Assembly (NCBI GenBank): GCA_964468955.1
Contig: CAYXXB010000001.1
Location: forward strand, 1 to 58,792
DNA: 58,792 nucleotides
From: an uncultured Clostridia bacterium
GTDB lineage: Bacteria; Bacillota; Clostridia; Christensenellales; Borkfalkiaceae
Reading direction: 5' to 3'
The notes under the pieces are model-generated. The model saw only the letters and a program-made list of their open reading frames with translations. It searched no databases and was not told where the DNA came from. A program made the position numbers and the translations under genes. The stretch's first letter is position 1, and the number at the start of each line of letters is the position of its first letter. Shown piece by piece: positions 5,717 through 45,131 of the stretch.

Positions 5717-5818
5717 AAGCGTTTTAATTTAAGTTTGTTTATTATTGCAGTTAAAAATGCAAGCTTCCTTCTATTAAAACTGCGACTATACACAATAGCC
5801 GCAGTTCACTTGACTTAT

Positions 5819-7242: not shown

Positions 7243-7249
7243 CGTTATG

Positions 7250-18579: not shown

Positions 18580-19362
18580 TTAATTAGCTTTGGCTGTAAT
18601 GCTCAATGCTATTTTATTTATAGTAAAGCAAAATCCTGCTTCGCTATCTTCTTTATTATTCACGACCGTTGTATTATCAGCCCTGTGAATAACCGTAGTG
18701 CGTTCAGCCACATTGTAATATCTTAAGAAGAACGCCTTAATAGGAGCAACGCCGAAATTGAAAGACTGCATTGAAGGAGCGTCTTCCTTAACCTTGAGAG
18801 TAAATTCAAAGGTTATTTTATTCGTAGCCGCCGTATTACTATTTCTAACATTTCTATTACTTAAGCTTACGAGCATACCGTTGCCGATAACGGGATTCCA
18901 AGTACTCGTATCCATAAAATACTCAGTATCAACGGAGTGCGAAACGTATTCAAAATAATTTGTAACCGTAGTATCGATAATATTATCGCCGTCTAATGCG
19001 GTAAAAAGTAAAGATACAGAGTGCCAATTGTAATCGGTTAAATTAGACGATATTTCAAGGGTAACGGTAAAAGTATCACCTGCGGTAAGATCGTTCTTGT
19101 CCACCGACACTTTTACGCCCGAAGGGGTTGAAAAAGGATACTCTTCTTTATCGCCGGTGTTGTCCTTGTCTCCGGTATTGTCTTTATCACCGGTATTGTC
19201 TTTATCGCCGGTGTTACCACTATTGTCGGTTATACCGCTATCAGGGGTATTATCTGCAGGCTTCTTATTACAAGCAGGGAAAATAAATGCTATACTTAAT
19301 GCTATTACGCAAACTAAAACAAAGTGTAAAAATAAAGAAGTTAAATGTTTTGCCTTTTTCAT
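18580..19362 (-). CDS. 260-aa putative lipoprotein carrying one cohesin-like domain (locus protein C)
   Basis: Signal peptide with the lipobox-like 'IFPAC', a (GDKDNT)x4 linker, then a domain paralogous to the N-termini of B and D. It ends 53 nt upstream of gene B. Confidence 0.7.
   Translation of the reverse strand: MKKAKHLTSLFLHFVLVCVIALSIAFIFPACNKKPADNTPDSGITDNSGNTGDKDNTGDKDNTGDKDNTGDKEEYPFSTPSGVKVSVDKNDLTAGDTFTVTLEISSNLTDYNWHSVSLLFTALDGDNIIDTTVTNYFEYVSHSVDTEYFMDTSTWNPVIGNGMLVSLSNRNVRNSNTAATNKITFEFTLKVKEDAPSMQSFNFGVAPIKAFFLRYYNVAERTTVIHRADNTTVVNNKEDSEAGFCFTINKIALSITAKAN
18583..19128 (-). other. cohesin-like domain of protein C (approximate bounds)
   Basis: 'VKVSVDKNDLTAGDTFTVTLE...WHSVSLLF...NYFEY...ITFEFTLKVKEDAPSMQSFNFGVAPI...VNNKEDSEAGFCFTIN'. 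Confidence 0.45.
19150..19221 (-). repeat. 4 x 18-nt in-frame tandem repeat encoding GDKDNT
   Basis: Units atcgccggtgttgtcctt / gtctccggtattgtcttt / atcaccggtattgtcttt / atcgccggtgttaccact. Confidence 0.85.
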
Positions 19363-21768: not shown

Positions 21769-21935
21769 AAGTACCTCCTCAAAAGAACTTATTTATTTGA
21801 TATTAATTTGGTTTTTTCGACGAAGCTTGTCGAATTTTCGCACATATTATACACCTGACATTGCATCTTGTCAAGAATAATTCAGACAAGAATGCAATGC
21901 TTCGGGTGTATTTTGTTTGTTTTAACTACTTCTGT

Positions 21936-30900: not shown

Positions 30901-33900
30901 GTAGCTTTTGCGGTATGCCCATCAGGTCCGCTTGCGTCCTTCGTCGCGCCGCTAATTGCAACGGTGCATTCGTCAAGCTTTCCGGTGATAGCGTTCGTTA
31001 CAAGATAGCCGGCAGCCACTTCGACGAAAGGTTTATGCTCTGTTGTACCGTCGTAAACGCATATGGGGTCGATACCCAAATCGTCAAGGACAGGGTTACC
31101 GTCTACGTAGTGAGTTTCTTTCGACCACTTAAGCGCAACCGTCTTAGGCGTAACGGTCGTGTAAATTACCTTTACGTCGGTCGTGCCGTCTTTCCAGCAA
31201 TACGTGTCTTTAAGAGTGAACGCAACGTGGTATGTACCTGCGTTGACAGCTTCGATTTTGACAAGTCCGTCACTGCCGACGCTTTCTCTCATAACTGTTG
31301 TGTCATATTCGCCTATCGTCATCATGGACAAATCGATATTTTCTATAATCGACTGCCAGTTGCCGTTATAGGTTCTGGGAGTTTCCAAAGCGTTAGGCTC
31401 GGGATCAACGGGCGTACCGATAGAAGCTTCGATGTTTGTTACGTCGTCGCTTGCAGTCTTGGAAATCGCGAAAATGCTTCTATTTGATACGAACACCGTA
31501 TTGGGATGAACGTCGTTATACATACCGAAGCCGCTGGTGAATATGCCTGCGTTGAGACGGTAGATACCGATTTTCGCTTCTTCAGTGAATTCGGATACAA
31601 CGTTGAGCTTTTTCGTAGCTAAGTTGAAGAAGATATCACAGTAATCGTTAGGTTCTACTTCCCTATCTCCGCCAACGTTTGTTTTATCCATAGCGATATT
31701 GTTATAAATACGCGCGCTGCCGCCGACAGACATAGTACCTGCACCGTAAACGCGGATACCGTTTTCACCGGTGTTTGCGGTAATTTCGCCGCCCGTGACG
31801 GTTACATTGCCCGTACTTGTGACGTAAATTGCACCGCCACCGTCGTTTTCAGACGTACCGGTTGCTGTGTTGCCCGTAATCGTACCGCCGAGGATATCGG
31901 TCTTGCCCGCAGAATAAATACCGCCGGCGCCGATAGCTTTGTTGTTGGAAATAGTACCGCCGTTCATCGTAAAGTAGGTACCTGAACCGCTGTTTACGAA
32001 TACTGCGCCCGCGCTCGAACCGGTGTTAGCCGTGATAAGAGCGTCTCCGTCCATAGTGAACTTACCGTTGCTCGCCACGTAAACGCCGCCGATTACCGCG
32101 TAGTTTTTGGTTATAGTACCGCCAGTGAAGTTGACCGTACCGGTTGTGTAAACCGCACCGCCGCCCGATTCAGCCGTGTTGCTTTCAATCGTGCCGCCCG
32201 TCATAACGAACATTCCGCTGCCGGCAACATAAACCGCGCCGGAGTACTTTGCAGTGTTGGAAGAAATCGTGCCGCCGTTCATAAAGAACTTGCCTGCCGA
32301 GTAAACTGCGCCCGCACTTGCGGATTGCGATTCGCCCTTATTGTTGCTGATCTTGCCGTCGGTCAAGGTTACACTGCCCGTAGCGCCTATGTGCAGCGCG
32401 CCGCCGGAAGAACCGGTAAGGTTAGCACCGCCCGTGATGACGCCTTCAGATCTGTCGCAACAGGTAGGAGGAATAAGTCCCGCGGGATTATCCACCTTGT
32501 TATTTACAATTTCAAGTTCGCCGTCGGCATAGATAACCATACCGTTCTGAACGGAAGTCTTCAAATTCCTGTTAATCTTATGACCGTTGAGGTTAAGTGT
32601 TACCTTAGCACCTTCTGGAACATACAGAGCGCCGTTGCGGAATGCGGTGCCTGAACCGAACGAAGTCGTAAGCTCTTCGTCGGCAGCCGCCGTCCAGCAA
32701 CCGTAGAGCGTGAATTCCTGAGCTTCGCCCGTAGCCAAGCTCTTATCAACCGTGAACTGCCAATTTACCGCGTTGTCAAAGCTGGAAACTGACAATTCGG
32801 TATATCCGTCGAATACTTCCGTCTTGCGGTTGTAAATTGCAGGTTCTTCGGATACGAAGATGCTTGCGTAAGGATCTGCATCGTTGCCGTTTTTAGCGCC
32901 CCAGCCCTTAGTGAGCTGACCTACGCTCTGGCGCGAGAAGCCTATCTTCGCATCATTCGTCAATTTTGAAGCGACGTTGATAATGCCAAGAGGATTTTCA
33001 AGCCTTAAGCCTGTGCCTGCAGTTCTGTTTTCAGTATAGATGTAAGCGTTGTCGCCTACGCTTACGGAAGCAGCCGTGTTCTTGCTTACGAATACGTCCG
33101 CATTGGTGTTGCCTGTAATCTTACCGCCGGTCACGGTGAGCGAACCTGCATTTACGTTAATACCGTAAATCGAGTTGCTCGTAATTGTGCCTGCGCCGTA
33201 AGTACCGTAGAGGTTGGCTTCGTCGCCGTTCAATACTAAACCATCGGGCTTGATAAGTCCGCCGACCGTCAGGGAAGCCGTATCCTTATTGACGTAAACG
33301 CCGTAGCTGCCGCCCTTGATAACGCCCGTCTGCATTATCGAGGAGTCGACAATCTGCAACGTGCCTTCTACGATAATTACCACGTTTATCGCAGGATACT
33401 TGATATCGTTAGCCAAACCGTGGTTACGGTCGAGAACGTTACCGTTGAGGTCGAGAACTATGTTCGCGCCCGCAGGTACAAGCAATGCGCCGCTGCGATA
33501 TGCCGTCGAGTTAGTGCCGAACCTTGTAGTGTACGAACCGCCGCTGTAATTTGCCGCCGTCCAATTATCTACCAATGAGAAGTACTGAGGTTCTTTGTTA
33601 GACAAACTTGCCGTAACTGCGAATACCCAGTTATCGTTATTGTTGTTGGAAAGCATTACGGCTTCGCGCTGTGCGCCCGTACCCGTTGAAGCTACTCTGT
33701 AAGTGTTGACAGCCGCTTTGAAGCGCGTTTCGGGCTTGCTTGTAGGATTGTATTTACCCCAATCCTTCGTGAATTCGCCGATTATGTTTCTCTTTACGAA
33801 GATATCGTTCTTGGTTACGTCCTCACCTGTAACAAACGCCGATGCAATTTCGATTAACGGCGACGTGTTGCTCCAGAAAGTGATATCTTCTCTGCGTCCG

Positions 33901-36900
33901 TTGGTCAAGTAGTTGTCGGAGAACTGTACTGTGCCGCCCAACGCAAGCTTACCGCCGGTTATACTGATTGCACCCGCGCCGCCCGAACGGTTATCGGTAA
34001 TCAAGCCTGCAAGAATTGTGACTTTGCCTTTGCACGCACAAATTGCACCGCCGTAGGTTCCGCGGTAGCCGCCCGTAATCTTACCCTGAACGATATTTCC
34101 GTTTCTGTCGGTTTTAGCCTTGCTGTCGATAATGATAAGCTCGCCTTCGACGTGGAATACCGCGCCTTCTGAAATGCCTTCTACCCTGCCGTGGTAACCG
34201 CGGTCGATAGTGTTGCCGTTGAGGTCGAAAATAATCGACGCGTTGGTAGGAACGAAAAGTTCACCGCCGTTATAGCCCGTACCGGAGCCGAACGAAGTGC
34301 TGCTTGCACTCGTCTGCGTAGCCCTCCAATCGTCGTAGAGGACGAACGTCTGCGTTTTCTTCAGATCCTGACTTGCCTTAACCGTGTTAGCCCAGTTGAG
34401 CTTGTTGTCGCGCAGGGTCATCAACGCCTCGTGAGTGCCGTCCTGATTGTAATCCGCAAGCGAATAGCTTTCGGGATGGTCGGTCGAGAAGACTGTGGTT
34501 GCTTCGTATTCGTTGTTGAGAAGGTTCCAATCCTTCGTGATATATCTGCCTGCCGCAGGAACGTGGTTAACGTTTACGGACACGCCTATTCTTGCGTCTT
34601 CCCTAAAGTTATCGCTTATGAACAACTTGTTGGTGTTGGTTTGAATATATACGTTGGATTCCTGATCAACGACAGCATTCAAATTATCAAGCTGTTTGTT
34701 GCCGTGAATATAAGCCGAACCGCCCAATCTTACGGTAGCGCTGCCGTCTACGTAAACACCGCCGTAATCTTTTCCGTAGTTGCCCGTGATTTTACCGCCG
34801 AGCATAGAGAAAGTAGAGCCGCCGCTGAGGTATACGCCGCCCGCAAAATTCTTTGCTTTATTGCCTGTGATAGTACCGCCTTCGATGGAAAGCGTACCTT
34901 GGTAAACCGCAATACCGCCCGCTCTGCCGTTGGAATACGACGTGCTGTTACCGTCAGTGAAGCCGCCGGTGATTCTACCCTTCTGGTCCGGATCACTGTC
35001 TTTTATGACGAGAGTACCTCTTACGTAGATAACTTCGCCGTCCTTAATAGGCGACACAAGCGCACGGTCTATTATGTGACCGTTGAGGTCGAGAATGACG
35101 TGGCACTTTGCGGGAACGTACAACGCGCCGCGATAGAACGCGCTCAAGCCTGAAATATCGCCGAACGATTTAGTGAACGTACCGTGAGTATCCGCCGTCC
35201 AATCTTCGAAAAGCGTGCAGACCTGCGCCCTGCCGCCGTTGGCAAGACTCGTCTTGACCGCGTGCGCCCAGTTGGTAAGGTTATCCTTGCCGATGAACGC
35301 CGCTTCCATACTTGCGTCGTCTAAGTAGCCTTCGTCTACTATCATATAGCGGTTGTCATCCGACGTGAAGTACGTGGTGGGTTCAACCGTCTTATTGTAT
35401 TTACTGTAGTTGGTAGTAAGAGTACCGGAACCGAAGTTAGAACTACCTTTTGCCCTCATTACGCCGAACTGAGCGGATGAGCCGAATTCGGAAATAATGT
35501 TAATCATCTGCGTTTCGTTATGCAGATAAAGGTTTGTTACGTTGCCGTTGCTGAACTGATTGCCGGTAATTCTTGTCTTACCGCCGAGTGAGAACGTGTT
35601 GTTGCCCGCAAGGTATACGCCTACGCCGTTGTTGTCTGATACGGCGCCGCCTTCCATAGAAAGCTTACCTTTGCTTACAACGTGGATACCGCTCGCGTAC
35701 TTGGCGTCGTTGATGCTCGTACCCGTAGTCCAGCCGCCCGCAATCATACCCGAGCCGCCTGTCGACGTGTCGATTATGCTGAGTTTGCCTTCTACGTAGA
35801 TAACGTAGCCGTCATCGTTTGCACGGGGCAAGTCACGGTTAATCAAGCCGTCGTTGAGGTCAAGCACGATTTGCGCGCTTGCAGGAACGCGGAGAGCGCC
35901 TTTGGTGAACGCCGTCGTGTCCGAACCGAACGAAGTCGTTTCGTTGTTTCTCGTTGCGACCCATTCTCCGAACAGCTTGAAGGTCACTTCGGTCTTGCTG
36001 GTCGTACTGTAAGTTACTGCGTTCTTCCAGTTAGTAGCGTTGTCATAGCAGTACAGAGCCGCTTCAGTTGCGCCGCCGCTTGTCAAATCGATAACCTTGT
36101 GGAACGGGTCATCTGATGCGAAGAAGAACGTAGAAGCAGGTTCGCTGTTGTAACGGCTGTAATTGCTTGTTATCTTGCTTCCGCCCAGGCTACCATCTGC
36201 ATAGTTGTTAACCGACTTGTAAACGCCGATGTGAGCGCCTTCGGTAAGCGTATCGGTAACACCCATAACGCCGGTTTTAACGCCGAACACAACGTCCTTC
36301 TGAACGCCCGCGCCAGACTTGTTGCCTTCAACTACCGCCTTGCCGCTTACGCTGAACATTGCGCCGTCTTCGATATATACGCCCGCATAGGTGCTTTGGT
36401 TATTTATAACCGCAGCGTCCTGAAGCATGAACGTACCGCCCTTTACGACGTATACGCCGCTTGCCGAGTTGGTTGACGTAGAAGCGTTCCAGTTGCCCGA
36501 AACGGTACCGCCGAGCATTTTAAGAGTTGCTTTACCGCCGACGTGGATACCGCCCGCATAGAAGTTGGTGTTATTTCTGTCGTTCTTACCGCCGGTAATA
36601 ATTGCTTTATTATTTTCGTCCTTTTCAGCCGAATCATAAATAGTCAATTTGCCGAGAACGACGAATACAAGACCGTACTGACGTGCGGAAGTTATATTTC
36701 TGTTAATCGTCTTGCCGTTCAAATCCAGCTCGATGTTAGCAGTTTCGGGAACGTAAAGCGCACCGTTGCTAAAGCCCGTACCCGAGCCGAACGAAGTGCC
36801 TAAGCTTGCGTCGCCGTCCGCAGTCCAGTGGTCGGTAAGACGAACAGTCTGAAGCTTGCCGCCCGTTTTAACGCTTTGGTCAACCGCGTATTGCCAGTTG

Positions 36901-39900: not shown

Positions 39901-42900
39901 TTGTCGATGCCGGAACCAAGCGCTCTGTCTATAGTGTAGCCCGCGAGGTCGAGAATTATATTGGCGGCGTTAGTCCAAAGCGCACCGTTTGTAAGCGATT
40001 GATTATCGGACGCGTCGCCGAACCTGCCCATCGTATCCGCGGTCCAGTGTGAAACAAGCGTTACCTTACGCTGAGTACCGAGCTTGACGCTTTCGGTAAC
40101 CGCATTATACCAGTTGGTGTAGTTATCCCAGGTATACAAGGCAGCTTCGCCCGTTTCCGCACCCGAATCTATTACGAATCTGTCGGGATCGTCCGCTACG
40201 AAGTGAGCCGCCGCACCATCCGTATGGTAGTGAGCAAAGCCGTTTGTAAAGTCGCTGGAAGCTTCGAAATAAATACCGCTCTTTTCAGGTGAAGTGAGCT
40301 GAGATTCCGTTCTGTCGAACGTGATTACCTGTGCGTATTTTGCGCGCAGGTTGATATTCAAAGGCTTGTCGAACGTATTCTTATTGCCAGTAACGACAGC
40401 GCTTCCGCCCATTGCGAAGTAATTTGCTTTAGTAAAAGTGGTGTCTACAAACGTTGCGATACCGCCCGCGTCGCCGATATTGTCGGTAATCTTACCGCCG
40501 TAAATCGAAAGATACGTTGTTGCGGAGGTGATATTGATGCCGCCCGCCTCGCCTTCCGTCGAGTTGTAGCCGCCCGTAATGATACCGCCGCCGACAGAGT
40601 CTCTTATTTCGAGACGGCAAGTGCCGCTTGTGTTTAAAACGTAGCCGTGTTCTATGCTGCTGTCAAGTGCGCGGTCCAATCTGAAGCCGTTGAGGTCGAG
40701 AATAATATTACTCTTGGGCAAGTCTAAAGCGCCCGTAGCCGTAAAGCCCGTGCCTGTACCGAACACGCCGTCTACAGCAATCCAGTTTTCGTAAAGCTTA
40801 ACCGTTATGGGCTGCCCCGTAACCGCGTCTCTGCCCGCATTAACCGCGTCCGACCAGTTTTTAGCCGCACTGCGTATCCAGTAAGTAGCTTCCTTTGCCG
40901 CGCCCAAGCCGTATTCGAGAATAATACCGTAGCTTGTATCGGAAGAGAAGAAGAAATCCGAAGCGGGCTGCGTGTTATACGTGCCGTAACCGCGCGTGAA
41001 TATGTTGCCGTTCGTCGTTTCCAGCGTGATGTTGTTTGTATCCGGTCTGTGAATACCTATCTTCGCGGGAGAAGTGAGCGGGCTTATTATCTCTATTTTA
41101 TAATTGGCGCCATCGTTCATATGCGCGACGGTAGAACCCGCCGTTGCCGAAGGGTTGTAAATGTCGCTGGGATTGCCTACGCCGAATTCTTGACAATCGT
41201 CGCTTTGGAAGTTGTTTAAAATTCTGGGATTGCCGCCGAGCGAGAGCGTACCCGACTTAAGCGAAACCATACCTATACCGCCGGCAAAATTGCCGAGGTT
41301 GTTGGTAATAGTACCGCCCGTAACAGTGACTCTGCCGCCCGCAACCTGTATGCCGATTGCGCCCGCGCCGAACATAGTCGTTCCTTTCGAATCGGTTGCA
41401 TTGGACCTGTTGCCAGTTATATTGCCGCCTTGAACGACAAGCGTGGAAGACGCGTTGGTAAGCGTAATTGCGCCGCCCGTGTAAAGACCTTTATTGTTGG
41501 AAACAAAGCCGCCCGTAATGGTGCCTGTTCTTGCGGTAGAGCTATCCTTAATATATAATGTACCGCCGACTATATTTATAACGTTGCCGTACATCATACC
41601 GACGGAATAATCGGATAAGCCTCTGTCAAGAGTGTGACCGTTCAAATCGAGTACGATTGCGGAGCCTGTAACTACGTTCAGCGAACCGTACCAGTACGGG
41701 TTCGTAGCCGCCGTGCTTGTATCCGCTTCTTCGTCGCCTAAGAACGAGGTGCCGAAGTTTGCCGTTGCGTTGTCCACAGCCGTCCAGTCTTCGGTAAGCT
41801 TAACGGTGTACAGCTTGCCGTTGAGTATCTTACTCATCGTGACCGCGGTACTCCAGTTGTCCGCGCCATGCGCAGAAACCATAACTGCTTCGCCCGTAGT
41901 CTCGTCCGTATCTATGAAGCAACCGGGCTTTTGAGCCGTGAAGTAATTTGCAGGGTTTGCCGTACCGTTATTCGCGGGGTAGCCCGACGTAATGGTGAAG
42001 AGTATATCCCTGTAAACGCCTATTTTCTTGGTGGTCGTAAGGGGTTTAACTATGGTGATAAGACCGTTATCAATCTTATCAGTATCCGTAAGCTTAACGG
42101 AAGGAAGATGGACGTCGTTTGCCGCGCCGTTGGCGGTGTTGCCCTCTATTACGGGGTTGTCGCCTATGGCGAAGTAATTGTTTTTAAAGCCGAAGCCTAT
42201 GCCGCCCGCTTCCGTTTCCGCTACGTTGTTTATAATTTTGCCGCCGAGCATCGTAAGCCTTAACGCAGCCTGTTTTGCGGTCGTCGTACCGCCGAGGTAA
42301 ACACCGCCTCCCTTTAACGCGTGGTTGCCCGAAATTTCGCCGCCGTTTATATTGATGTCTGCCTTGCCCGCGTCAACGGCATTTATGCCGCCGCCGTTGC
42401 CTAACGTGCCGTCCGACCTGGTTATAGCCGTATTATTGCGGACAATACCGCCGTTGATGTTGACAGTGCCGGTATTTATGTATATACCTGCGCCTTGGTT
42501 AGCGTAGTTGTCTTCGATAATACCGCCGCTCAGGGTAAACGTTCCCGAACTCGATACGTGAATGCCGCCGCCGTTGCCGGCAGTGGTGGCGGAACTATTT
42601 ATGTTGTAGCCGCCAGTGATTTTACCGGTCTGAGCTGCGGAAGTATCCGTAAGCTCCATAGTACCGCCGTCAACCTTAATTACGTGTCCGGTTGTCTGAA
42701 CTGCGGTAGCCGCGGTCAGACCTCTGTCTATCGTGTGACCGTTCAAATCGAGAACGATACTCTTAGCTGCAGGAACCTTTAACCACAAGTCCGACGTGGA
42801 GTTGTAGCCTTCGTTATGGTCGGTAAACATCTTGCCGTTAGCGTCTGCAGTAAGTTCCGCAGGCGCTACGAATTTGCCGCCAACAGCGATTATATCGGCA

Positions 42901-44489
42901 TTGAGCTTAACCGTCATCGTACCGGTAGTGGCGGTGCTTGCAAGCACCGCGTTCTGCCAGTTGAGGATATCGAGCTTGTTAGTCCACCTTACTTCCGAAC
43001 CCGCACTTGTAGTAACGCGCTTATTATCGGGGTCGATCCAGTAATGGTCGGGATTGGAAGGCTTGAAGAATTGCGTCGGGTCGTCGTTGCCGTTAGCCGC
43101 GCCGTAGCCCGAAGTAATCGCAGCCCAGGTCATACTCGCAATGGGCGTAGATACGTAGTTATCCGTGTATTTTACTACGTGAATTTCCGCGCCGGGCAAC
43201 AGCTTTTCAGAAACCGCTATAACATTGGTTCTTATTGATTTGGCAATGCCTGTACCCTGTCTGCCGCAGTATAAATCCAAGTCGTTGGGGTATTTAGGAG
43301 AAGATGAGTTGTACTCGTCCTGAACGTAGTTGTCCTTTATTACGATTGTTCCGCCTACGTAAAATTTGCTACTGGTATTGCTTCTTACACCGCCCGAAAT
43401 GTAACCGATATTGCCCGATATTTCGCCGCCGAGCAAATATACCTTCGGTGTTGTGTTCGTACCATTCGTAGCATCAATGCCGCCTGCGCCCTGTTGTTTA
43501 CCCATGCCGACGTTGCCCGTAATTTTGCCGCCCTTTATCGTGGTCGTAGAGCTGCCGTGCGTAAAAATGCCGCCCGTACCGTGGGTTGTTTTAGTGCTTG
43601 CTCCGTCGCATAAACATTTATTGTTGCTTATTTCGCCGTTGTGCATTGTAAACGACGTGCCGTTATTGTAAACGCCGCCGACGTTGCGGGGATCACCCGA
43701 AGCCAGATAGCATGTGTTATCGGTGATTTTGCCACCGTACATATCGAACGTAGAGCTACCTGTAAGGGTAACCGCACCGCCCCAACTACTTTTATTGCCC
43801 GTAATTGAGCCGCCGTACATTTCCACATGACCACCGTTAACGGCTACGCCTGCGCCCATATAAGATCCGTTAGAAGAAGAATAAGAATTCCATCCGCCCG
43901 TGATTTTACCGCCGCCTACGGAGTCGGTTATCTTCAGATAGCCTTGAACATATATTACGAAGCCGCCCTGAGTCATAGCCTTGCCGAGACTGCTGACGTT
44001 ACGGTCTATCGTGTGACCCGCCAAATCGAGTTCTATGTACCAACCGCTGGGAACGCGGAGCGCACCCCCATAACGATAGTCGGTACTTGAGGGTTTATAG
44101 TACGCGTTGGAGTTGCCCGTGCCGAACTCCGTTCTGAACGTAGTGGCGTTGGTTGAGTCCTTTACTTCCGCAATCCAGTCGCCCGCAAGCGTTACCTTTG
44201 CGTAATTCGCCGCGTTACCTTTCGCCGTGATAGCCGCAAGCCACGCAGTCTGGTTTGCCGAGTTGGCGTTTGCCGCGTACGCCGTGGTCGTTTCCGCGTT
44301 ATCCGAAGCTTCGTTGTTCCAGAACTTAAATCCCGAAATACCGAATACCGCGGTAAGCACCGTCAGCATAAACAGTATGCAAATAACCGCCGTGCGCCAT
44401 AAACCTGCACGACGAACCGTCCTTACGGAATTCATTCCGTTGCGGTTGTTTGCTTCATTTATCCTGTTTTCCGTGTTCTTGTTTTTCAT
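21936..44489 (-). CDS. 7,517-aa giant surface protein (locus protein E)
   Basis: Uninterrupted 22,554-nt ORF with RBS aggtga. The N-terminus is basic with a hydrophobic helix 'TAVICILFMLTVLTAVFGI'. It carries 14 beta-helix-type modules, an MBG-like/Ig-like repeat array and a dockerin-like C-terminus. Periodic protein-level repeats exist only in this frame. Confidence 0.85.
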   Translation of the reverse strand: MKNKNTENRINEANNRNGMNSVRTVRRAGLWRTAVICILFMLTVLTAVFGISGFKFWNNEASDNAETTTAYAANANSANQTAWLAAITAKGNAANYAKVTLAGDWIAEVKDSTNATTFRTEFGTGNSNAYYKPSSTDYRYGGALRVPSGWYIELDLAGHTIDRNVSSLGKAMTQGGFVIYVQGYLKITDSVGGGKITGGWNSYSSSNGSYMGAGVAVNGGHVEMYGGSITGNKSSWGGAVTLTGSSTFDMYGGKITDNTCYLASGDPRNVGGVYNNGTSFTMHNGEISNNKCLCDGASTKTTHGTGGIFTHGSSTTTIKGGKITGNVGMGKQQGAGGIDATNGTNTTPKVYLLGGEISGNIGYISGGVRSNTSSKFYVGGTIVIKDNYVQDEYNSSSPKYPNDLDLYCGRQGTGIAKSIRTNVIAVSEKLLPGAEIHVVKYTDNYVSTPIASMTWAAITSGYGAANGNDDPTQFFKPSNPDHYWIDPDNKRVTTSAGSEVRWTNKLDILNWQNAVLASTATTGTMTVKLNADIIAVGGKFVAPAELTADANGKMFTDHNEGYNSTSDLWLKVPAAKSIVLDLNGHTIDRGLTAATAVQTTGHVIKVDGGTMELTDTSAAQTGKITGGYNINSSATTAGNGGGIHVSSSGTFTLSGGIIEDNYANQGAGIYINTGTVNINGGIVRNNTAITRSDGTLGNGGGINAVDAGKADININGGEISGNHALKGGGVYLGGTTTAKQAALRLTMLGGKIINNVAETEAGGIGFGFKNNYFAIGDNPVIEGNTANGAANDVHLPSVKLTDTDKIDNGLITIVKPLTTTKKIGVYRDILFTITSGYPANNGTANPANYFTAQKPGCFIDTDETTGEAVMVSAHGADNWSTAVTMSKILNGKLYTVKLTEDWTAVDNATANFGTSFLGDEEADTSTAATNPYWYGSLNVVTGSAIVLDLNGHTLDRGLSDYSVGMMYGNVINIVGGTLYIKDSSTARTGTITGGFVSNNKGLYTGGAITLTNASSTLVVQGGNITGNRSNATDSKGTTMFGAGAIGIQVAGGRVTVTGGTITNNLGNFAGGIGMVSLKSGTLSLGGNPRILNNFQSDDCQEFGVGNPSDIYNPSATAGSTVAHMNDGANYKIEIISPLTSPAKIGIHRPDTNNITLETTNGNIFTRGYGTYNTQPASDFFFSSDTSYGIILEYGLGAAKEATYWIRSAAKNWSDAVNAGRDAVTGQPITVKLYENWIAVDGVFGTGTGFTATGALDLPKSNIILDLNGFRLDRALDSSIEHGYVLNTSGTCRLEIRDSVGGGIITGGYNSTEGEAGGINITSATTYLSIYGGKITDNIGDAGGIATFVDTTFTKANYFAMGGSAVVTGNKNTFDKPLNINLRAKYAQVITFDRTESQLTSPEKSGIYFEASSDFTNGFAHYHTDGAAAHFVADDPDRFVIDSGAETGEAALYTWDNYTNWYNAVTESVKLGTQRKVTLVSHWTADTMGRFGDASDNQSLTNGALWTNAANIILDLAGYTIDRALGSGIDNGFVILIADGGTLKLIDSVGGGKITGGNNTFTSSDDYVGGGINNRGKFIMEGGIITGNRAVGHALSTGGVYTDTHANNTFIMTGGVITDNTGSFTGGVNVSGAAKVYLGGKAQIYGNKLLSGAPSDVLNNGGTVANKINVYSQFESGARIAVAYVGNNYGNLDNNVFTSSFASLNKTIEPKDVFEASDPLKYVIGKRDLGSGIEGMLICIDNEQNWRQGIAATSTAAAPITVTLNRDWLAEDYTTFVTAFGTQTAAYSNGGLNVPAGKYIILDLAGHKLDRRLTTPRTMGYVINVIGNLTVIDSSASKSGVITGGYSTDTGGGITYRDKDATGALTLLGGKITGNIGIAGGVEIARSDNKVLPFSFGDSAIVTGNTNNRLLASDIVANNAVQMIDIISPLTQKGRGLTGFTRDGVGDFTTNFKKFMPSEVPTDFFTSTDPMYVYNFENGEGALYTSSNQLNWLYAVKASVTGNKKQITFKLVDDWLSDAGSFGVDSTVNAFYAANGGALRVPANANIVLDLAGCTLDRGFRAAVDLGYVIRVEGMLKIIDSSTTGKGVITGGFNNSESTNEYDQSSVIAILGNGAVTMEGGTIKGNRATGKQSAAIVLDLTTTTFTMTGGTITENYGGPKDAHTGAGAINLRTSLTLKLGGSAKIFGNKHNFGEYSSDVHFNAANYYVEIVQKFNKSANIGISPNDKVNNYNNATKGKGGVQFTKNFSNFHPDADDTPDRYFFGSWYLWHDVTTIYLDTGREGAFWCMENYTNWVNAVAASSATTTITFELTDNWTAESSEKYGTTFHPSDTSAFKNGAIYLPAKKSIILDLKGFTIDRGLFDGAAVDNGAVITILGNLEIIDSVGGGMIVGGNNKNGGGGIIVDSTGVLTVHGGTITENKGTEGAGIHVIKGGKLTLGGAIDIYGNTDASNAPKNVYIAVKDALINVDKQLVPTQVIGVTRLGNGTVTSGFQTYMPGNSPLECFKSENDNYYGIEGGDGELFFLSPDNFTNWQYAVDQSVKTGGKLQTVRLTDHWTADGDASLGTSFGSGTGFSNGALYVPETANIELDLNGKTINRNITSARQYGLVFVVLGKLTIYDSAEKDENNKAIITGGKNDRNNTNFYAGGIHVGGKATLKMLGGTVSGNWNASTSTNSASGVYVVKGGTFMLQDAAVINNQSTYAGVYIEDGAMFSVSGKAVVEGNKSGAGVQKDVVFGVKTGVMGVTDTLTEGAHIGVYKSVNNYADGSLGGSKITSNYSRYNSEPASTFFFASDDPFHKVIDLTSGGATEAALYCYDNATNWKNAVTYSTTSKTEVTFKLFGEWVATRNNETTSFGSDTTAFTKGALRVPASAQIVLDLNDGLINRDLPRANDDGYVIYVEGKLSIIDTSTGGSGMIAGGWTTGTSINDAKYASGIHVVSKGKLSMEGGAVSDNNGVGVYLAGNNTFSLGGKTRITGNQFSNGNVTNLYLHNETQMINIISEFGSSAQFGVMRAKGSSNFGSGTLTTNYSKYNKTVEPTTYFTSDDNRYMIVDEGYLDDASMEAAFIGKDNLTNWAHAVKTSLANGGRAQVCTLFEDWTADTHGTFTKSFGDISGLSAFYRGALYVPAKCHVILDLNGHIIDRALVSPIKDGEVIYVRGTLVIKDSDPDQKGRITGGFTDGNSTSYSNGRAGGIAVYQGTLSIEGGTITGNKAKNFAGGVYLSGGSTFSMLGGKITGNYGKDYGGVYVDGSATVRLGGSAYIHGNKQLDNLNAVVDQESNVYIQTNTNKLFISDNFREDARIGVSVNVNHVPAAGRYITKDWNLLNNEYEATTVFSTDHPESYSLADYNQDGTHEALMTLRDNKLNWANTVKASQDLKKTQTFVLYDDWRATQTSASSTSFGSGTGYNGGELFVPTNASIIFDLNGNTIDRGYHGRVEGISEGAVFHVEGELIIIDSKAKTDRNGNIVQGKITGGYRGTYGGAICACKGKVTILAGLITDNRSGGAGAISITGGKLALGGTVQFSDNYLTNGRREDITFWSNTSPLIEIASAFVTGEDVTKNDIFVKRNIIGEFTKDWGKYNPTSKPETRFKAAVNTYRVASTGTGAQREAVMLSNNNNDNWVFAVTASLSNKEPQYFSLVDNWTAANYSGGSYTTRFGTNSTAYRSGALLVPAGANIVLDLNGNVLDRNHGLANDIKYPAINVVIIVEGTLQIVDSSIMQTGVIKGGSYGVYVNKDTASLTVGGLIKPDGLVLNGDEANLYGTYGAGTITSNSIYGINVNAGSLTVTGGKITGNTNADVFVSKNTAASVSVGDNAYIYTENRTAGTGLRLENPLGIINVASKLTNDAKIGFSRQSVGQLTKGWGAKNGNDADPYASIFVSEEPAIYNRKTEVFDGYTELSVSSFDNAVNWQFTVDKSLATGEAQEFTLYGCWTAAADEELTTSFGSGTAFRNGALYVPEGAKVTLNLNGHKINRNLKTSVQNGMVIYADGELEIVNNKVDNPAGLIPPTCCDRSEGVITGGANLTGSSGGALHIGATGSVTLTDGKISNNKGESQSASAGAVYSAGKFFMNGGTISSNTAKYSGAVYVAGSGMFVMTGGTIESNTAESGGGAVYTTGTVNFTGGTITKNYAVIGGVYVASNGKFTMDGDALITANTGSSAGAVFVNSGSGTYFTMNGGTISNNKAIGAGGIYSAGKTDILGGTITGNTATGTSENDGGGAIYVTSTGNVTVTGGEITANTGENGIRVYGAGTMSVGGSARIYNNIAMDKTNVGGDREVEPNDYCDIFFNLATKKLNVVSEFTEEAKIGIYRLNAGIFTSGFGMYNDVHPNTVFVSNRSIFAISKTASDDVTNIEASIGTPVDPEPNALETPRTYNGNWQSIIENIDLSMMTIGEYDTTVMRESVGSDGLVKIEAVNAGTYHVAFTLKDTYCWKDGTTDVKVIYTTVTPKTVALKWSKETHYVDGNPVLDDLGIDPICVYDGTTEHKPFVEVAAGYLVTNAITGKLDECTVAISGATKDASGPDGHTAKATGLSNSNYKLGTGAEVEYKFHVLKAERPEFEITTTTAAYNYPTKIEVSGNLENGKLTYEVDASCKSFASFNENGELIAKKYDPDTPVIVKIKVTAGESKNYKQSEATAEITVVRGKLYATIVPAEVTFGTSVQLTLEGEFSATDIIGAIKYTKSLTGDGQASLSESGLFTATGVGKVYVTATVEESVDYEATTIEAVIEIIPKVLTVNWGTSLTTPYSGSPQTLAAPTLEGTNSSDNCTVSVYKAGFLGWDSKKQAPTWSEVGKYDVGLVLSDPVNYKLENDSDYFATFEIVKADLTEDVFKFTSYSASVGVPFKPEVTGNPAGSNVKITKESDTIRGNYDLDRTTGEYTAYTTGTMTFKAVFEGDKNYNPKTIWGVFTIAETDIPLEISPSELTYGDPATEIKLSYKNPNDPNPIPATATATVISLDSSYNAIAELVEIDGKKCILPKAAGTIKIHVEHPAASPYKQTSVDLEVVIKPLPVKVDWTFDTNGYIYNGTAQYPTATITGTLVGSDLCGVTGYEAYQLKDGEYVKVEGGAINAGDYKIKAIFDNANYVIDEDYSANLTIKPLPVDLSWSNTNLVYNGKEQAPTAGVFNIVIIDGEMDECTVTVVGTKNAGTNLTARATELSNPNYTLEGGKNLTEKFTITPKSVTVTWGETDLVYTGERQAPKATAVGLLGKADGLEEDDTTEVVVTGEQVNVNPADNPYTATASSLSNHNYQLDPDVYHTTQFNIVKATPTITLKQTEAIYGTQFILQIDGNAGNGTVTYSLGEGDGVTATLGSGNLLTPIDVGSIEVIVSVAATQNYNGVTEQKYTLPIKPRPIEVSWDDLVFDYDKNPHNPTATVTNQVGGEVLELTLSAAQTNAGTYTATVTGIKLLGDLTNKYTLEGGTDISQEFVINKKVVTITWSNTEFTYDGDDHAPTATIGDLEDGDTCTATVKGAKDAGMNIVAEITELSNSNYTVEGAANETVRFNIYQRLAKLSWSDTELPYTGSEQLPTVEITNLVEGDECTVNLDGAAVDVGTHTATAISLSNPNYTLVFDDDETDPEKRTQIECEFEIVKGKITIELVDDEVTFGSEITLSLVENPSGNDPTFAIVTGGTGSGSITDGTTFKATGAGTVKVSVHVASSANYDEADDEVEVTVKKLPVVIEWVDGEFTYNRTKQTPTASVSNVVDGYPCNVTAIDGSTDAGENLEAKVTAVDNDNYTIEGGTNITTNYAIQPLPVTMITWDSDRTYEYNGDSQGPNATASGIIYPDECKVTVSGWQTNVGDYTAEITGLSNSNYSLVGIVDLTVDFKIVISTPTLTLKTTEVQIGTTKKIEVEGNIGNGDMTYTIVSGGDYGELNGDSLYGKMLGTVRIRVDVAATSNTNAAYVEGDINVVKGQPPLKLERNTVMYGSTLTLTVDDNGGALRDGNGDLMFGNVTFTVVSRYANVAEIVDGNVLKPKSAGTVYVKMETEETDYFDAAKGNNAVTVEITITPRIITLGWKDGTFTYNAKDQHPEVEITNIVGNDKVELVVSGGKNVGDHTAKVTGLTGVDSKNYTLDRTTNKEKDFHINPYVLSLEWGDLTLPYNGEDQTPEAIVELVDGETAECNVILEVEGPHKNVGTYTVKATGVDNNNYELDQTYETTFQIVPADLKPTLTPASIEYGKTEVLTLGGNIDGAPYDLQVDSSNSVGNGVVNNDNGKWTFTATRVGSVKIKVKINGTTNCNPFNGVLEIEVVKAERNVELLTLEGVYGEDLVLEISGNDDDPGLVSFAPAASDNDYAVIVGNKLTPKHAAYVTVIVQVAATDNYKSATVSAQVHIKPRVVEIEWQHHEFEYDGTEKKPEAKVANLINDDECEVTVGGGGTNAGHYTNAHVISLSNPDYTFEGSISASGHMFDIAKKAIKIEIVTDRINVDDEVKLVITGNEGDAPVTVTVDESGNAKIKEGTTDVIVALNKGSVNVTVSVAESQNYFGDTKTKLIIIDKSKLTLTLKNNTIQYGDKKGLVLDVEGNVENQKVYFDKTDMDGSCHLISDNTVLMPDGAGKVIITATIMETENYAKTVAEFEVTITPIVVDLVWHNFEFTYDGKNMFAPTATVRTGLVTNSEGVTDECTINVKGAQLNVGTYKEGTAYADDECLSNKNYSLGGKVIKAPQFVINRAKLSLSFVTKVITIGVSTKLEIAGNMEFGQTLFAMGEVTDTALLDNLGVAAFDDVMTGMITGTQLGYVHVSVTVMPTDNYEGGQAECDILVDKPEAPIELQVTTVTFGDEVSLNPIVTDNSYALGDFDYFVELDLNKVAKNTGEALVSGLAAFKAMKVGIVYVNLHVDATDDFRETDKSIPITIVPRVLGFVWDTDTEFEYNGEEQHPDVVGFTNLVFDPDINDGDITLEYEGSIYASEEATATITALNNENYTLEGSTTATTTFVINPRKVILSWTIGELIYNGEKQAPEATVTNRVKNDVVHVTVDGQIDAGENLTAEAVAVSNSNYTVDGGTNITTTFEIKPYAVNIHWGDLHLTYTGTVNVPTATAVGLKGEVVNVTVEGVGEDTGSCVHASNKPYQAQATGISGNTNYTLNTAGSVVTTRNSIRKMDVSTPEPLITDYYIDKKELTFSSKVTSVEYNGEAQEPSFIPDVFASDTGNLSISYIFDGGVTPVNVDEYDTYISLGGSASSDYKLSADDMQSFKFKITPKKVQVLVTPMNQTAEYTGEAVKLTDWYTLSIVSGLIGDDIGSSLEDIFTSNNLKINPLFKLSDGSTVSSVGARGTYGLSADLTNVTGKLSGNPNYEAEFKLNTEANATLTISGDAALQLTEDSTFKFLHLDTNEMYGFMFMYRVSYDEKGWVHGKDDTDFERVVLGNILPGTFAGEFLDNINPAQLDSIRLYNYDGELVYDCGKDIGIDDSDLRSDESYLIGTGWKVTYGKDESAADVVYLSVLGDVTGEGYCDGDDMSVITNYVAASNTSSLEDLEFLLAALITNSGYVSASDLSEVGSIGNGYSNVEDFLV
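21939..22148 (-). other. dockerin-like C-terminal segment of protein E
   Basis: 'GDVTGEGYCDGDDMSVI...ITNSGYVSASDLSEV' is collinear with the protein D C-terminus. Confidence 0.5.
22900..31400 (-). repeat. alternating array of about 20 MBG-like ('Y(N/D/T)G..Q.P.a.V') and about 14 Ig-like ('.YG......i.G') domains
   Basis: Motifs such as LVYNGKEQAPTAGV, LVYTGERQAPKATAVG, EFTYDGDDHAPTATIGD and LPYNGEDQTPEAIVEL are each followed by 'SN(S/P)NYTLEG....F.I.P'. They are interleaved with modules like 'TEAIYGTQFILQIDGNAGNGTVTYSLG'. Confidence 0.7.
31420..44270 (-). repeat. 14 diverged modules of about 290-310 aa, each with an 'NW..AV' cap, an 'LDL(N/A)G.(T/I)(I/L)(D/N)R' signature and G-rich beta-helix turns
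   Basis: Counted in the translation: IELDLAGHTIDRN, IVLDLNGHTIDRG, IVLDLNGHTLDRG, IILDLNGFRLDRA, IILDLAGYTIDRA, IILDLAGHKLDRR, IVLDLAGCTLDRG, IILDLKGFTIDRG, IELDLNGKTINRN, IVLDLNDGLINRD, VILDLNGHIIDRA, IIFDLNGNTIDRG, IVLDLNGNVLDRN, VTLNLNGHKINRN. Each is followed by 'GG.ITGN.....GG(A/G)(I/V)(Y/H)'-type turns. Confidence 0.8.
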
Positions 44490-44718
44490 AGTTTCACCTA
44501 CTTATCAAACAATGACTTTTAAACTTGTTTTCCTTTTGATTTTGCCTTCGGCTTTTTCAGCCTTGACAATTTTTGTCTTGGTTTTGTTTCGTGTTGTAAT
44601 TGACCGCATTTACCTGCCGATTCAATTACCTAAGTCCCCCTACGGGGGAAGGTTTTTTTCTTGCTTTTTTTATATAGCAAAAGGACATAGGGGTACACTT
44701 TTACACCTATACGATTGT

Positions 44719-44747
44719 ATTTTATCATAGGGCTATATGAATTTCAA
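44719..44747 (-). promoter_or_regulatory. putative sigma-A promoter of the giant gene (TTGAAA-17-TAAAAT) with an adjacent A/T-tract UP-like element
   Basis: On the minus strand: ttgaaa (44747-44742), 17-nt spacer, taaaat (44724-44719). A T6A9T3 tract at 44751-44768 lies immediately upstream. This implies a 5' leader of about 220 nt. Confidence 0.5.
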
Positions 44748-45086: not shown

Positions 45087-45131
45087 CATAATAAAAGCGG
45101 GGTTGCCGATATATGGGCAACCCCGCTTTGG
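45087..45131 (-). terminator. intrinsic terminator of gene F
   Basis: 14-bp stem aaagcggggttgcc/ggcaaccccgcttt starting 15 nt after the F stop codon. A T-rich tail follows on the minus strand. Confidence 0.75.

Follow-up and report, generated by a model that had tools for sequence, protein, structure and literature searches.

What kind of protein carries fourteen copies of the same module in a row, and what might such an array do for the cell that makes it? The question is raised by a stretch of 58,792 nucleotides (the window) from an uncultured Clostridia bacterium of the family Borkfalkiaceae (Christensenellales), in which an earlier note, written from the letters alone, had described fourteen repeats of a β-helix-like unit with the signature LDLNGHTIDR. 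The flagged modules make up the front half of a giant protein of 7,517 aa, and the best explanation for it, to which we give a probability of roughly 0.65, is a dockerin-tethered, adhesin-like surface fibre whose distal N-terminal half is a segmented β-helix rod.

The module array and the gene that carries it

The repeats had been placed at positions 31420-44270, and our delimitation of fourteen tandem modules, 31377-44264, agrees closely with this. Module starts were set by the cap anchors NW..AV (Table 1), which gives module lengths of 239-463 aa (median about 289; n=14). The module repeats far beyond chance: 181 of the 182 ordered module pairs gave a mutual BLASTP match, with a median E of about 3e-12 (at a database size of 1e8 residues), 25-48% identity and a median alignment of 243 aa. 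All four parts that had been ascribed to each module are visible in the module alignment, where N1, W2, L21, F37, L63, R70, V81, G86, I101, G103, G104, G133, N138, T246 and F262 (M11 numbering) are invariant in 14/14 modules, and W25, A27, G49, L51, L61, D62, G65, G79, G99 and E282 are nearly so. The exact LDLNGHTIDR string occurs only once among the modules (Table 1); a strict signature pattern fits 10/14, and the other four deviate from it at one or two positions. The described expansion of M14 into roughly ten turns was also found, with nine rungs of ~25 aa counted by eye (aa 4031-4255), seven of which match the strict regular expression G[GADNS]x[ILV]xxN.

All fourteen modules lie inside one reading frame, uninterrupted over 22.5 kb, and a public protein collection contains an identical 7,517-aa sequence (P0121). 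The giant open reading frame runs on the minus strand past the modules and takes in an Ig-like stalk and a dockerin-like domain, a continuation that is absent from the earlier note. Its start codon is preceded by a Shine-Dalgarno sequence and, further upstream, by a promoter-like site (Table 1), and since a terminator-like hairpin closes the upstream gene, the giant gene probably has a transcript of its own.

Four other giants, 42-52% identical to this one, have the same fourteen modules in the same order, with conserved module spacing. Best matches between them were positional in 55 of 56 cases, and over 219 core columns in the five giants the nearest neighbours pair by position in 70/70 modules, with a module identity of 0.53 between orthologues vs 0.33 between paralogues. 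Because the pairing holds position by position in giants that have diverged this far, the array is ancient and has not been homogenised; and because the modules keep their own identity and length across these lineages, the array argues for a position-specific function and not for a generic spacer. Fourteen paralogous modules, each with a retained identity, constitute an unusual case of repeat evolution. Identity among the orthologous giants rises along the array from 0.37 in M1 to 0.58 in M14, the N-terminal modules varying most in both sequence and length. M13 and M14 are the most conserved, and a functional site could sit there, not at the tip. A scan of metagenomes for orthologous 3' ends, for synteny, found no relatives, and the P0005 locus ends at a contig edge. 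An origin of the array from a two-module (short plus long) super-repeat, as suggested by the pairing of best paralogues, was considered and set aside, since the core-column signal is marginal (identity 0.352 short-short, 0.343 long-long and 0.331 short-long) and tree support partial.

Table 1. Features of the giant gene and its surroundings (positions in the window; aa numbering of the giant protein)
Feature	Coordinates	Strand	Description
Intrinsic-terminator-like hairpin	45094..45129	minus	14-bp stem; end of gene upstream of giant
Promoter-like site	44719..44747	minus	TTGAAA-17-TAAAAT with TG; consensus match only; ~230 nt upstream of giant's ATG
Shine-Dalgarno	about 44495-44500	minus	AGGTGA, 5 nt ahead of giant's ATG
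Giant surface protein, complete ORF	21936..44489	minus	7,517 aa; ATG at 44489, stop 21936-21938
N-terminal leader, aa 1-75	44265..44489	minus	basic n-region, hydrophobic segment aa ~30-55, AYA aa 70-72
M1, aa 76-509	42963..44264	minus	tip module; expanded, most variable
M2, aa 510-877	41859..42962	minus	bears exact LDLNGHTIDR
M3, aa 878-1210	40860..41858	minus	
M4, aa 1211-1458	40116..40859	minus	short type
M5, aa 1459-1743	39261..40115	minus	long type
M6, aa 1744-1989	38523..39260	minus	short type
M7, aa 1990-2291	37617..38522	minus	long type
M8, aa 2292-2530	36900..37616	minus	short type
M9, aa 2531-2819	36033..36899	minus	long type
M10, aa 2820-3072	35274..36032	minus	short type; first half of two-module model
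M11, aa 3073-3364	34398..35273	minus	long type; AF2-modelled module
M12, aa 3365-3619	33633..34397	minus	short type
M13, aa 3620-3908	32766..33632	minus	long type
M14, aa 3909-4371 (array end)	31377..32765	minus	~nine canonical rungs; most conserved; sole POMP_repeat match
Connecting segment, aa 4372-4473	31071..31376	minus	
Stalk, aa 4474-7202	22884..31070	minus	18 MBG-like + 14 Big-like β-sandwich domains, ~80 aa each
C-terminal 'X' region, aa 7203-7440	22170..22883	minus	conserved
Dockerin-like domain, aa 7441-7517	21939..22169	minus	GDVTGEGYCDGDD loop
n750 (750 aa)	19516..21768	minus	signal peptide, shared N-terminal domain, Cadherin-like repeats, X + dockerin-like C-terminus
n260	18580..19362	minus	lipoprotein-like (FPAC), shared N-terminal domain
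n2312	11588..18526	minus	signal peptide, shared N-terminal domain, at least 6 Cadherin-like repeats, C-terminal TM helix, P/Q-rich tail

Fold and family of the module

The β-helix that had been proposed for the modules is borne out by a confident AF2 model of M11 (pLDDT 89.1, pTM 0.91), in which short strands come after a helix at residues 2-11 and recur regularly about every 25 aa, and by the Foldseek neighbours of this model, nearly all of which are right-handed β-helices (RBH). RBH proteins account for at least 30 of the 36 PDB neighbours, as well as for the top viral neighbour, and the neighbours include PL3 pectate lyase, pectin methylesterase, AlgE4, tapirin, SRRP, Ag43, SepA, IgA1 protease and pertactin. 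The Foldseek E-values are weak throughout (best 3.8e-3 viral and 0.018 PDB; TM-score at most 0.35), and the fold class rests on consistent neighbours together with sequence motifs, not on any single strong match. A two-module model of M10-M11 (pLDDT 86.5, pTM 0.80) has neighbours that lean to autotransporter adhesin passengers, and pertactin was also the top match in a profile-vs-PDB sequence search (E = 0.13). In the two-module model the M10 strand 242-248 runs directly into the M11 cap helix 251-264, and the linkerless modules are expected to pack as a rod that is segmented and fairly stiff.

According to these models, the module would be a self-contained, short right-handed parallel β-helix of four elements, with handedness, rung geometry, inter-module packing and the positions of D and R as predicted. 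The first element is an amphipathic α-helix cap (NW..AV..S) plus a strand; the second consists of a first rung of specialised sequence, I.LDLNG.TIDR, and a second rung that closes with ITGG; the third is made up of canonical PMP-like rungs, from one to about nine in number; and the fourth is a small C-terminal β-subdomain (IG..R...FT.G..., FF.S, GEA). An N-terminal α-helical cap is presented as a general feature of β-helix folds in PMC11532034, with reference to Bryan 2011. When signature strands (57) are aligned to canonical rungs of the type FTMxGGxIxGN (156), the D of the signature falls on an outward-facing Thr position and its R on a turn Gly position; LDLNGHTIDR is, by this alignment, the form that the rung takes at the capped end. 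The D-R pair, singled out earlier as a possible ligand or Ca site, is indeed conserved, with Arg in 14/14 modules, and with Arg at 89% and Asp at 80% across the family. None of the results supports such a site, however, and the rung alignment points to a role of the pair in capping or structure. Among the conserved residues of the module in general, the structural kinds (Gly, Asn, hydrophobic) predominate.

The impression that the module belongs to no named family also stood up to database searches. No Pfam-A model, PF13229 Beta_helix and PF02415 included, matched any of the fourteen modules at E up to 1 in scans of both protein halves and then of single modules and shorter pieces, nor did any PL/GH/CE or other enzyme-family model at the same limit. 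In NCBIfam there was one marginal match, of M14 alone to TIGR01376 POMP_repeat (16.8 bits vs a cutoff of 15, E = 0.0044, over a 21-aa stretch), and none to this model in the other 13 modules. Named homologues are all 'hypothetical' or generic repeat proteins, and a literature search for the signature motif string gave no match. The family is nevertheless large. A full-module search found at least 2,376 matches, and a cap-only profile (cap plus first-rung core) found at least 2,781, 844 and 112 representative clusters (50% identity) at E up to 1e-3, 1e-10 and 1e-30, respectively. A back-translated scan placed the exact motif in 103 genomic stretches vs ~0.4 estimated by chance, and 101 ORFs in these loci also match the cap HMM. 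The hosts are mostly gut and rumen Clostridia, with scattered occurrences in Bacteroidales, Coriobacteriia, Treponema and Kiritimatiellae. Among the homologues, precomputed assignments to PF13229 occur in some and to PF02415 in many, and the Pfam domains that co-occur in them (Chlam_PMP, Beta_helix, Flg_new, LRR_5, YDG, MBG_2, SLH) are of surface-protein types. The cap-plus-signature unit is two-layered, consisting of a signature core of ~55 aa that is very widespread and an NW helix that is rarer, being detected in only about a third of the family domains. The family has no model in Pfam or NCBIfam and its members bear no informative source-given name, and a curated model of the domain would give an annotation to thousands of surface proteins now labelled 'hypothetical'.

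Stalk, C-terminal tail and neighbouring genes

Behind the array and a connecting segment follows a long stalk, whose MBG-like copies were counted with a self-built HMM; Pfam's MBG_2 (PF18676) itself matches at 27.6 bits vs a threshold of 25, in four stretches at aa ~5001-5830. No autotransporter β-barrel translocator was found in the C-terminal half, where the only matches were to MBG_2, YDG, Big and dockerin-like domains.

The X region is, from about aa 7270, common to the neighbouring protein n750 (37% identity) and all giant orthologues, and it leads into the dockerin-like domain. The giant's own score against Dockerin_1 (PF00404) is 17.3 bits vs a cutoff of 22.9, over profile positions 1-52 of 57, and PDB dockerins are the top matches of the domain. 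Its first F-hand loop, DVTGEGYCDGDD, is recognisable against the pattern DxNxDGxIxxxD, and the second, ITNSGYVSASD, is degenerate. Homologous tails, which are 34-49% identical to that of the giant over about 210-250 aa, pass the Dockerin_1 gathering threshold in 7/7 cases (23.3-33.4 bits), so that the giant's C-terminus is homologous to dockerins that pass the Pfam cutoff. This comparison was made by local BLAST among the retrieved homologues; a wider homology search gave two matches. All giant orthologues, and small single-module proteins as well, carry the C-terminal region at their very end, and the small proteins argue for the single module as the functional unit.

Three neighbouring genes (Table 1) encode proteins with a shared N-terminal domain. 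Of these, n750 is a candidate adaptor, and n260 and n2312 are, purely hypothetically, candidates for a membrane-proximal and an anchored partner, respectively. The shared domain gave no PDB match with a three-sequence profile and one homologue in a large homology search. A cohesin was not identified in Pfam, PDB-profile or homology searches, or in the other loci examined; the idea that the shared domain is a cohesin is kept as a mere hypothesis, as the match to PF00963, in a single one of the three proteins, reached 15 bits and covered 24 profile positions.

Proposed function and relation to known systems

As a dockerin-tethered fibre, the giant would be exported by the Sec pathway via its N-terminal signal and held by its dockerin on a cell-bound partner, while the stalk would push the β-helix rod outward from the cell. 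Exposed module faces, above all those of the variable M1-M3, may then bind external ligands, the most plausible being glycans on host, food or other microbes. Secretion with cleavage, the rigidity of the rod, tethering by the dockerin, the orientation of the fibre and ligand binding are what we infer from sequence and models.

Several known systems share parts of this architecture. Chlamydial PMP/POMP proteins (PF02415, TIGR01376) and autotransporter passengers have similar G-rich rungs of ~22-25 aa with GGxI and xxN motifs, and a presumed role in adhesion, as for the giant, but they form one continuous solenoid, whereas the giant has fourteen discrete helix-capped solenoids, each with a C-terminal subdomain, lacks a β-barrel translocator, comes from a Gram-positive-type lineage and is apparently anchored by a dockerin. 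The Gram-positive surface β-helices that bind polysaccharides, the L. reuteri SRRP (5ny0) and the Caldicellulosiruptor tapirins (6n2b), are Foldseek neighbours of M11, although very weak ones (E 2.8-6.2, TM at most 0.2), and differ from the giant in having a single β-solenoid domain and a different anchoring. To our knowledge, the lineage of the giant includes no cellulosome producer. XDoc-anchored proteins of gut and rumen Ruminococcus such as CttA (PMC7456326) have a C-terminal X-module-dockerin and an N-terminal binding part, and R. flavefaciens has a large set of non-enzymatic dockerin proteins (PMC2930009). The giant resembles the XDoc proteins in its X region and putative type I dockerin at the extreme C-terminus, and is unlike them in that its cargo is a β-helix rod and not a CBM or enzyme, its own dockerin is degenerate and no cohesin was found. 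Similar in overall plan are the adhesin-like proteins (ALPs) of Methanobrevibacter smithii and Methanosphaera stadtmanae, which combine up to seven N-capped RBH domains with Ig-like domains and an anchoring module (PMC11532034). These are likewise gut surface proteins with several capped β-helices, Ig-like domains and an anchor, but they come from archaea and have a membrane-anchoring domain where the giant has its dockerin-like one, and the likeness noted is one of architecture. Since tandem capped β-helix plus Ig-like gut surface proteins have already been described (PMC11532034), the giant is a variation on that theme, with twice as many β-helix domains and with an order conserved by position.

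The orientation of the fibre might also be the reverse, with an uncleaved N-terminal anchor, the rod close to the cell and a distal dockerin that recruits cohesin-bearing proteins or other cells, which we consider improbable. The hydrophobic segment of the leader is ~25 aa long and has no AxA site directly after it, the AYA lying ~15 aa downstream, a combination that makes an uncleaved signal anchor, and hence the reversed orientation, possible; the dockerin sits at the extreme C-terminus, and n750, which has the shared putative partner domain, has a dockerin of its own. Yet the AYA motif is common to three of the four giant orthologues (AEA in the fourth), and an AYA-type motif at this distance in four of five orthologues suggests cleavage. 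The greater variation of the N-terminal modules in sequence and length is typical of exposed tips, and in known systems C-terminal X-dockerins anchor adhesins to the cell (PMC7456326).

Equally doubtful is a purely structural role, in which a rod that has no specific ligand would serve as a protective or spacing surface layer (coat, spacer or sheath) or as a length-defined strut, fourteen being the required length. The conservation of module count and per-position lengths in five lineages would fit this, as would the mostly structural nature of the conserved residues. The difference in identity by position (0.53 vs 0.33), however, exceeds what length alone needs, variability at the tip is rather to be expected of a part that faces a ligand, and in the small relatives this dockerin tail carries a single module.

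A series of tandem β-helix enzymes (lyases, hydrolases, esterases or epimerases), with the Asp/Arg of the signature as catalytic or Ca-binding residues, is considerably less likely still. PL3 pectate lyases, pectin methylesterases, AlgE epimerases and PL6 lyases are among the structural neighbours, the two residues are conserved family-wide, and PL1 pectate lyases use an Arg as catalytic base and bind Ca through Asp residues. Against this, no CAZyme or enzyme family matched any module, the helices are short with minimal loops, the conserved polar residues are at turn positions, and D and R are part of the first rung, directly under the cap, where an ordinary rung has Thr and Gly. The best sequence-level relatives (pertactin, POMP) are adhesin-type, and we know of no precedent for fourteen catalytic modules in series.

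Returning to the tethered fibre, a bolder and rather unlikely version would make the giant the cargo of a non-cellulosomal cohesin-dockerin-like display in small-genome gut Christensenellales, with an unrecognised cohesin-like domain on n260, n2312 and n750 as the partner, and with the fourteen modules as a multi-ligand 'reading head', each with its own specificity, attaching to host mucus or partner microbes. Christensenellales are well known for their co-occurrence and physical association with other gut organisms, and such a display system, if true, could give a molecular handle on this association. The giant array is in any case of interest for the biology of gut-microbe adhesion. Genomes of Ca. 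Coproplasma measure 1.4-1.7 Mbp (PMC8035907), and if these relatives are a guide, the 22.5-kb giant gene takes up >1% of the genome, a large investment, which suggests that the fibre is central to the gut attachment of these organisms.

That the array is an artefact, a mis-assembled or non-coding repetitive region, is next to inconceivable: metagenome assemblies of repetitive genes are error-prone and long antisense ORFs lie within the giant-gene region, but the frame is open throughout, the DNA-level repeats in the module region (32-79 nt, 60-88% identical) are too short and too diverged for an assembly artefact or a recent amplification, and four independent orthologues share the modules and their order.

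Module architecture and predicted fold

The 14-module region lies wholly inside a single minus-strand open reading frame of 7,517 aa without an internal stop, the giant surface protein of the window (see table). Using the N-terminal NW..AV cap helix as the anchor for module boundaries, we delimited the tandem modules M1 to M14 (N- to C-terminal), which range from 239 to 463 aa in length and agree, within about 45 nt at either end, with the region 31420-44270 that the earlier note had assigned to 14 modules; all four parts that it had described per module are visible in the module alignment. Residues constant in 14/14 modules include N1, W2, L21, F37, L63, R70, V81, G86, I101, G103, G104, G133, N138, T246 and F262. 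The other modules are 30-40% identical to M11, and 181 of the 182 ordered pairs were significant by BLASTP (median E ~3e-12 at a database size of 1e8 residues). At the DNA level, repeats extend over only 32-79 nt at 60-88% identity, which points to long-past module duplications and gives no reason to doubt the assembly; an artefact, one of the rival readings, is very unlikely. The G+C content of the module-coding half (window 32001-44000) is 0.51-0.54, versus 0.39-0.50 in the rest of the window, and is compatible with Gly-rich (GGN) coding, without foreign origin being required. Four antisense ORFs within the giant gene are most likely spurious, resulting from its biased codon composition.

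To compare the LDLNGHTIDR signature strand with the G-rich β-helix turns (rungs, ~22-25 aa), sequence logos were drawn up across five orthologues (57 signature strands, 156 canonical rungs) and registered on the conserved Ile. In this register L-D-L-N-G-H-T-I-D-R-(N/G/A) lines up with F-T-M-x-G-G-x-I-x-G-N, so that the signature represents rung 1 of the solenoid repeat to which the canonical rungs belong, with Asp replacing the outward-facing Thr and Arg replacing the turn Gly. Core conservation among 666 non-redundant family domains was D 80% (N in another 12%), L 95%, N 75%, G 92% and R 89%, values that are partly circular since the domains were picked by the profile; downstream of the signature these domains carry G/V/G/L/D and then G-x-I-T-G-G at 79-89% (Thr 71%), and the NW helix was detectable in only about one third of them. 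A capping or structural role would be the simplest reading of the signature D and R. About nine canonical rungs were counted in M14, in keeping with the expansion noted there earlier.

An AlphaFold2 model of M11, run with the 14 modules as alignment (pLDDT 89.1, pTM 0.91), shows an α-helix at 2-11, then short strands in regular succession, and a β-subdomain at the C-terminal end (217-287). Foldseek against the PDB found no close relative (best E = 0.9, TM <=0.33) and the best viral match was a Tupanvirus 'right handed beta helix' protein (E = 3.8e-3), but the match lists consist almost wholly of right-handed parallel β-helices, i.e. PL3 pectate lyases, pectin methylesterases, AlgE4/6, tapirin, SRRP, Ag43, SepA, tailspikes and Rhombotarget A; a profile search against PDB sequences placed pertactin on top, not significantly (E = 0.13). 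The predicted fold class is thus a right-handed β-helix, in line with the earlier guess from the sequence, and a helix caps its N-terminal end. In a two-module M10-M11 model (pLDDT 86.5, pTM 0.80) the final strand of M10 (242-248) is followed at once by the M11 cap helix (251-264), and the best structural neighbours are the autotransporter passengers IgA1 protease (E = 0.018), Ag43, SepA and pertactin. From these models we infer that the modules would form a segmented, fairly stiff rod.

An undescribed family and an array fixed by position

None of the 14 modules matches any Pfam-A family, even at E up to 1, and in NCBIfam only M14 matches, marginally, TIGR01376 POMP_repeat (16.8 bits versus a cutoff of 15), which bears out the earlier impression that the module is not a named family. 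Profile searches, the check proposed at that stage, returned thousands of matches, mostly from gut and rumen Clostridia and without informative names. With the full-module profile, at least 2,376 proteins were matched at E up to 1e-3 (8,000 candidates scored), called by their sources, in so far as these name them, 'hypothetical protein' or, in two cases, generically 'outer membrane repeat / parallel beta-helix repeat protein'; named source organisms were Clostridia MAGs (Oscillospiraceae, Lachnospiraceae, Eubacterium, Ruminococcaceae), and among the precomputed domains that accompany the module are Chlam_PMP, Beta_helix, Flg_new, LRR_5, YDG, MBG_2 and SLH. An exhaustive search of 1.84 billion representatives with a profile restricted to the cap plus the first two rungs matched 2,781 clusters at E up to 1e-3, 844 at up to 1e-10 and 112 at up to 1e-30.

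The exact signature, back-translated, occurs in 103 stretches of species-representative genomes, versus ~0.4 expected by chance by our own estimate from codon degeneracy. Most derive from gut or rumen Clostridia and a few from Bacteroidales/Muribaculaceae, Coriobacteriia, Treponema and Kiritimatiellae. In these loci 101 ORFs also match the cap HMM, some with 5-7 tandem caps, and of 350 proteins or ORFs with a cap, 178 also have the C-terminal subdomain. Outside Bacillota, the signature and cap-core HMM matches are seen in a few gut and rumen MAGs of Bacteroidales/Prevotella (L013, L018, L020, L021, L059, L101, L102), Coriobacteriia (L003, L071), Treponema (L042) and Kiritimatiellae (L061), which suggests either that the module has spread horizontally between inhabitants of the gut or that bins were contaminated. 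The LDLNGHTIDR motif drew no match in the literature. Judged by sequence, the module appears to be an undescribed, very widespread domain family.

The representative search recovered the window protein itself (P0121) together with other giants, of which P0122-P0125 (7,680-7,994 aa, 14 caps each) are 42-52% identical to it over about 7,400 aa. Module spacing in the 14-cap giants is kept position by position, with ~250-aa and ~290-aa modules alternating from M4 to M13. Best matches between giants were positional in 55/56 cases, and for all 70 modules the nearest neighbour had the same index (219 length-independent core columns), core-column identity being 0.53 for orthologous modules versus 0.33 for paralogues. 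This positional pairing implies that the 14-module array was in place before these lineages arose and that concerted evolution has not acted on it; an origin from a two-module super-repeat is only weakly suggested. Conservation climbs from M1 (0.37, with length also variable) to M14 (0.58), and is 0.38-0.47 in the stalk. P0126, P0127, P0129 and P0131 have 12, 11, 8 and 7 caps, respectively; they are ~7,000 aa long and share the dockerin tail, with different cap spacing (for some caps ~350 aa, or 600-1,000 aa). Between deeper lineages the rod has therefore been remodelled, though it is fixed at 14 in the closest group. Only one orthologue is named, a partial Ca. Coproplasma sp. protein with 48% identity over aa 303-2662. 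This genus is equivalent to GTDB UBA11940 (Christensenellales, Borkfalkiaceae) and has genomes of 1.4-1.7 Mbp (PMC8035907); the nearest loci in the genome collection are from uncultured Clostridia MAGs, one from rabbit gut (40-44% identity). The window probably derives from a gut lineage related to these.

Anchoring, proposed role and gene neighbourhood

The stalk (aa 4474-7202) comprises 18 MBG-like and 14 Big-like domains, with MBG_2 above the Pfam cutoff in one piece. The last ~250 aa share 37% identity with the C-terminal end of n750, the next gene, and are likewise conserved at the very end of all giant orthologues and of small Christensenellaceae MAG proteins with a single module. The final ~75 aa score 17.3 bits against Dockerin_1, below the cutoff of 22.9 yet spanning almost the whole profile; PDB dockerins lead their sequence matches, and 7/7 homologous tails exceed the cutoff (23.3-33.4 bits). 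We conclude that proteins of the family end in a conserved X-region and a type I dockerin, the window protein carrying a divergent, putative copy. No LPxTG sorting signal was found at the C-terminus. At the N-terminus, a basic region, hydrophobic segment and AYA motif are common to four of five giants, the fifth (P0125) having AEA.

The best-supported reading is that the giant would be an adhesin-like fibre, secreted and tethered through its dockerin. The 14 capped β-helix modules, each conserved in its own right, would make up its distal rod, and glycan binding seems their most plausible role. We infer this function by analogy with β-helix adhesins: gut-methanogen adhesin-like proteins likewise combine RBH and Ig-like domains (PMC11532034), and Ruminococcus adhesins are XDoc-anchored, an analogue for the tethering (PMC7456326). 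The architecture is remarkable in its strict positional conservation; the concept, a β-helix adhesin on an Ig-like stalk, is already known. Rival readings are that the fibre has the reverse orientation, that the rod is a purely structural strut, or that the modules are enzymes; pectate lyases are among the structural neighbours, and tests for membership in enzyme families, as in Chlam_PMP and autotransporters, gave no match or at best a marginal one.

Together with n1366, n750, n260 and n2312, the adhesin-like giant makes up an island of surface-protein genes that all run in one direction, surrounded by housekeeping genes (gpmI-like, hsp33, asd-dapA-dapB behind a lysine riboswitch in textbook arrangement, nadD, obg, rho, tyrA-like). 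A terminator follows n1366, promoter-like sites lie ahead of the giant and of n750, and no clear terminator was seen downstream of the giant gene. No Pfam match was found for n1366, whose ~340-aa cytoplasmic tail is extremely acidic and Glu/Pro-rich, with repeated IAPPVFDEP(A/V)EE units. The three genes downstream of the giant share an N-terminal domain (~180 aa, 24-30% identity), carried by two membrane-bound proteins and one dockerin-bearing protein, as one would expect for the cohesins of anchoring and adaptor scaffoldins. Hypothetically, the domain may thus be a cohesin-like partner of the dockerins that has escaped recognition, but all direct tests of it as a cohesin failed, with no Pfam or PDB match.

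Features of the window, with coordinates and strand
Feature	Position	Strand	Details
Lysine riboswitch	7247-7436	+	RF00168, 69.3 bits, full-length; directly upstream of asd
asd	7551-8636		downstream of riboswitch
dapA	8659-9546		downstream of riboswitch
dapB	9543-10295		downstream of riboswitch
265-aa protein	10422-11219	-	one N-terminal TM helix, then Pro/Gln/Met-rich low-complexity repeats (MPMMMGQPM..., APAPAPKPVAQQP...); no family match
n2312	11588-18526	-	shared N-terminal domain, at least 6 Cadherin-like repeats, C-terminal TM helix
n260	18580-19362	-	lipobox-like FPAC (lipoprotein-like), shared N-terminal domain
n750	19516-21768	-	signal peptide, shared N-terminal domain, Cadherin-like repeats, X-dockerin-like end
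Promoter, sigma-70-type	21846-21874	-	TTGACA-17-TATAAT, 12/12 consensus; between giant's stop codon and n750
Giant	21936-44489	-	7,517 aa
Modules M1-M14	31377-44264	-	starts at aa 76, 510, 878, 1211, 1459, 1744, 1990, 2292, 2531, 2820, 3073, 3365, 3620, 3909; last ends at aa 4371
Antisense ORFs	22866-23705, 27522-28334, 34191-35153, 38004-38810	+	268-320 aa
n1366	45144-49244	-	1,366-aa type I membrane protein; signal peptide, ~1,000-aa ectodomain, TM at aa ~1003-1030
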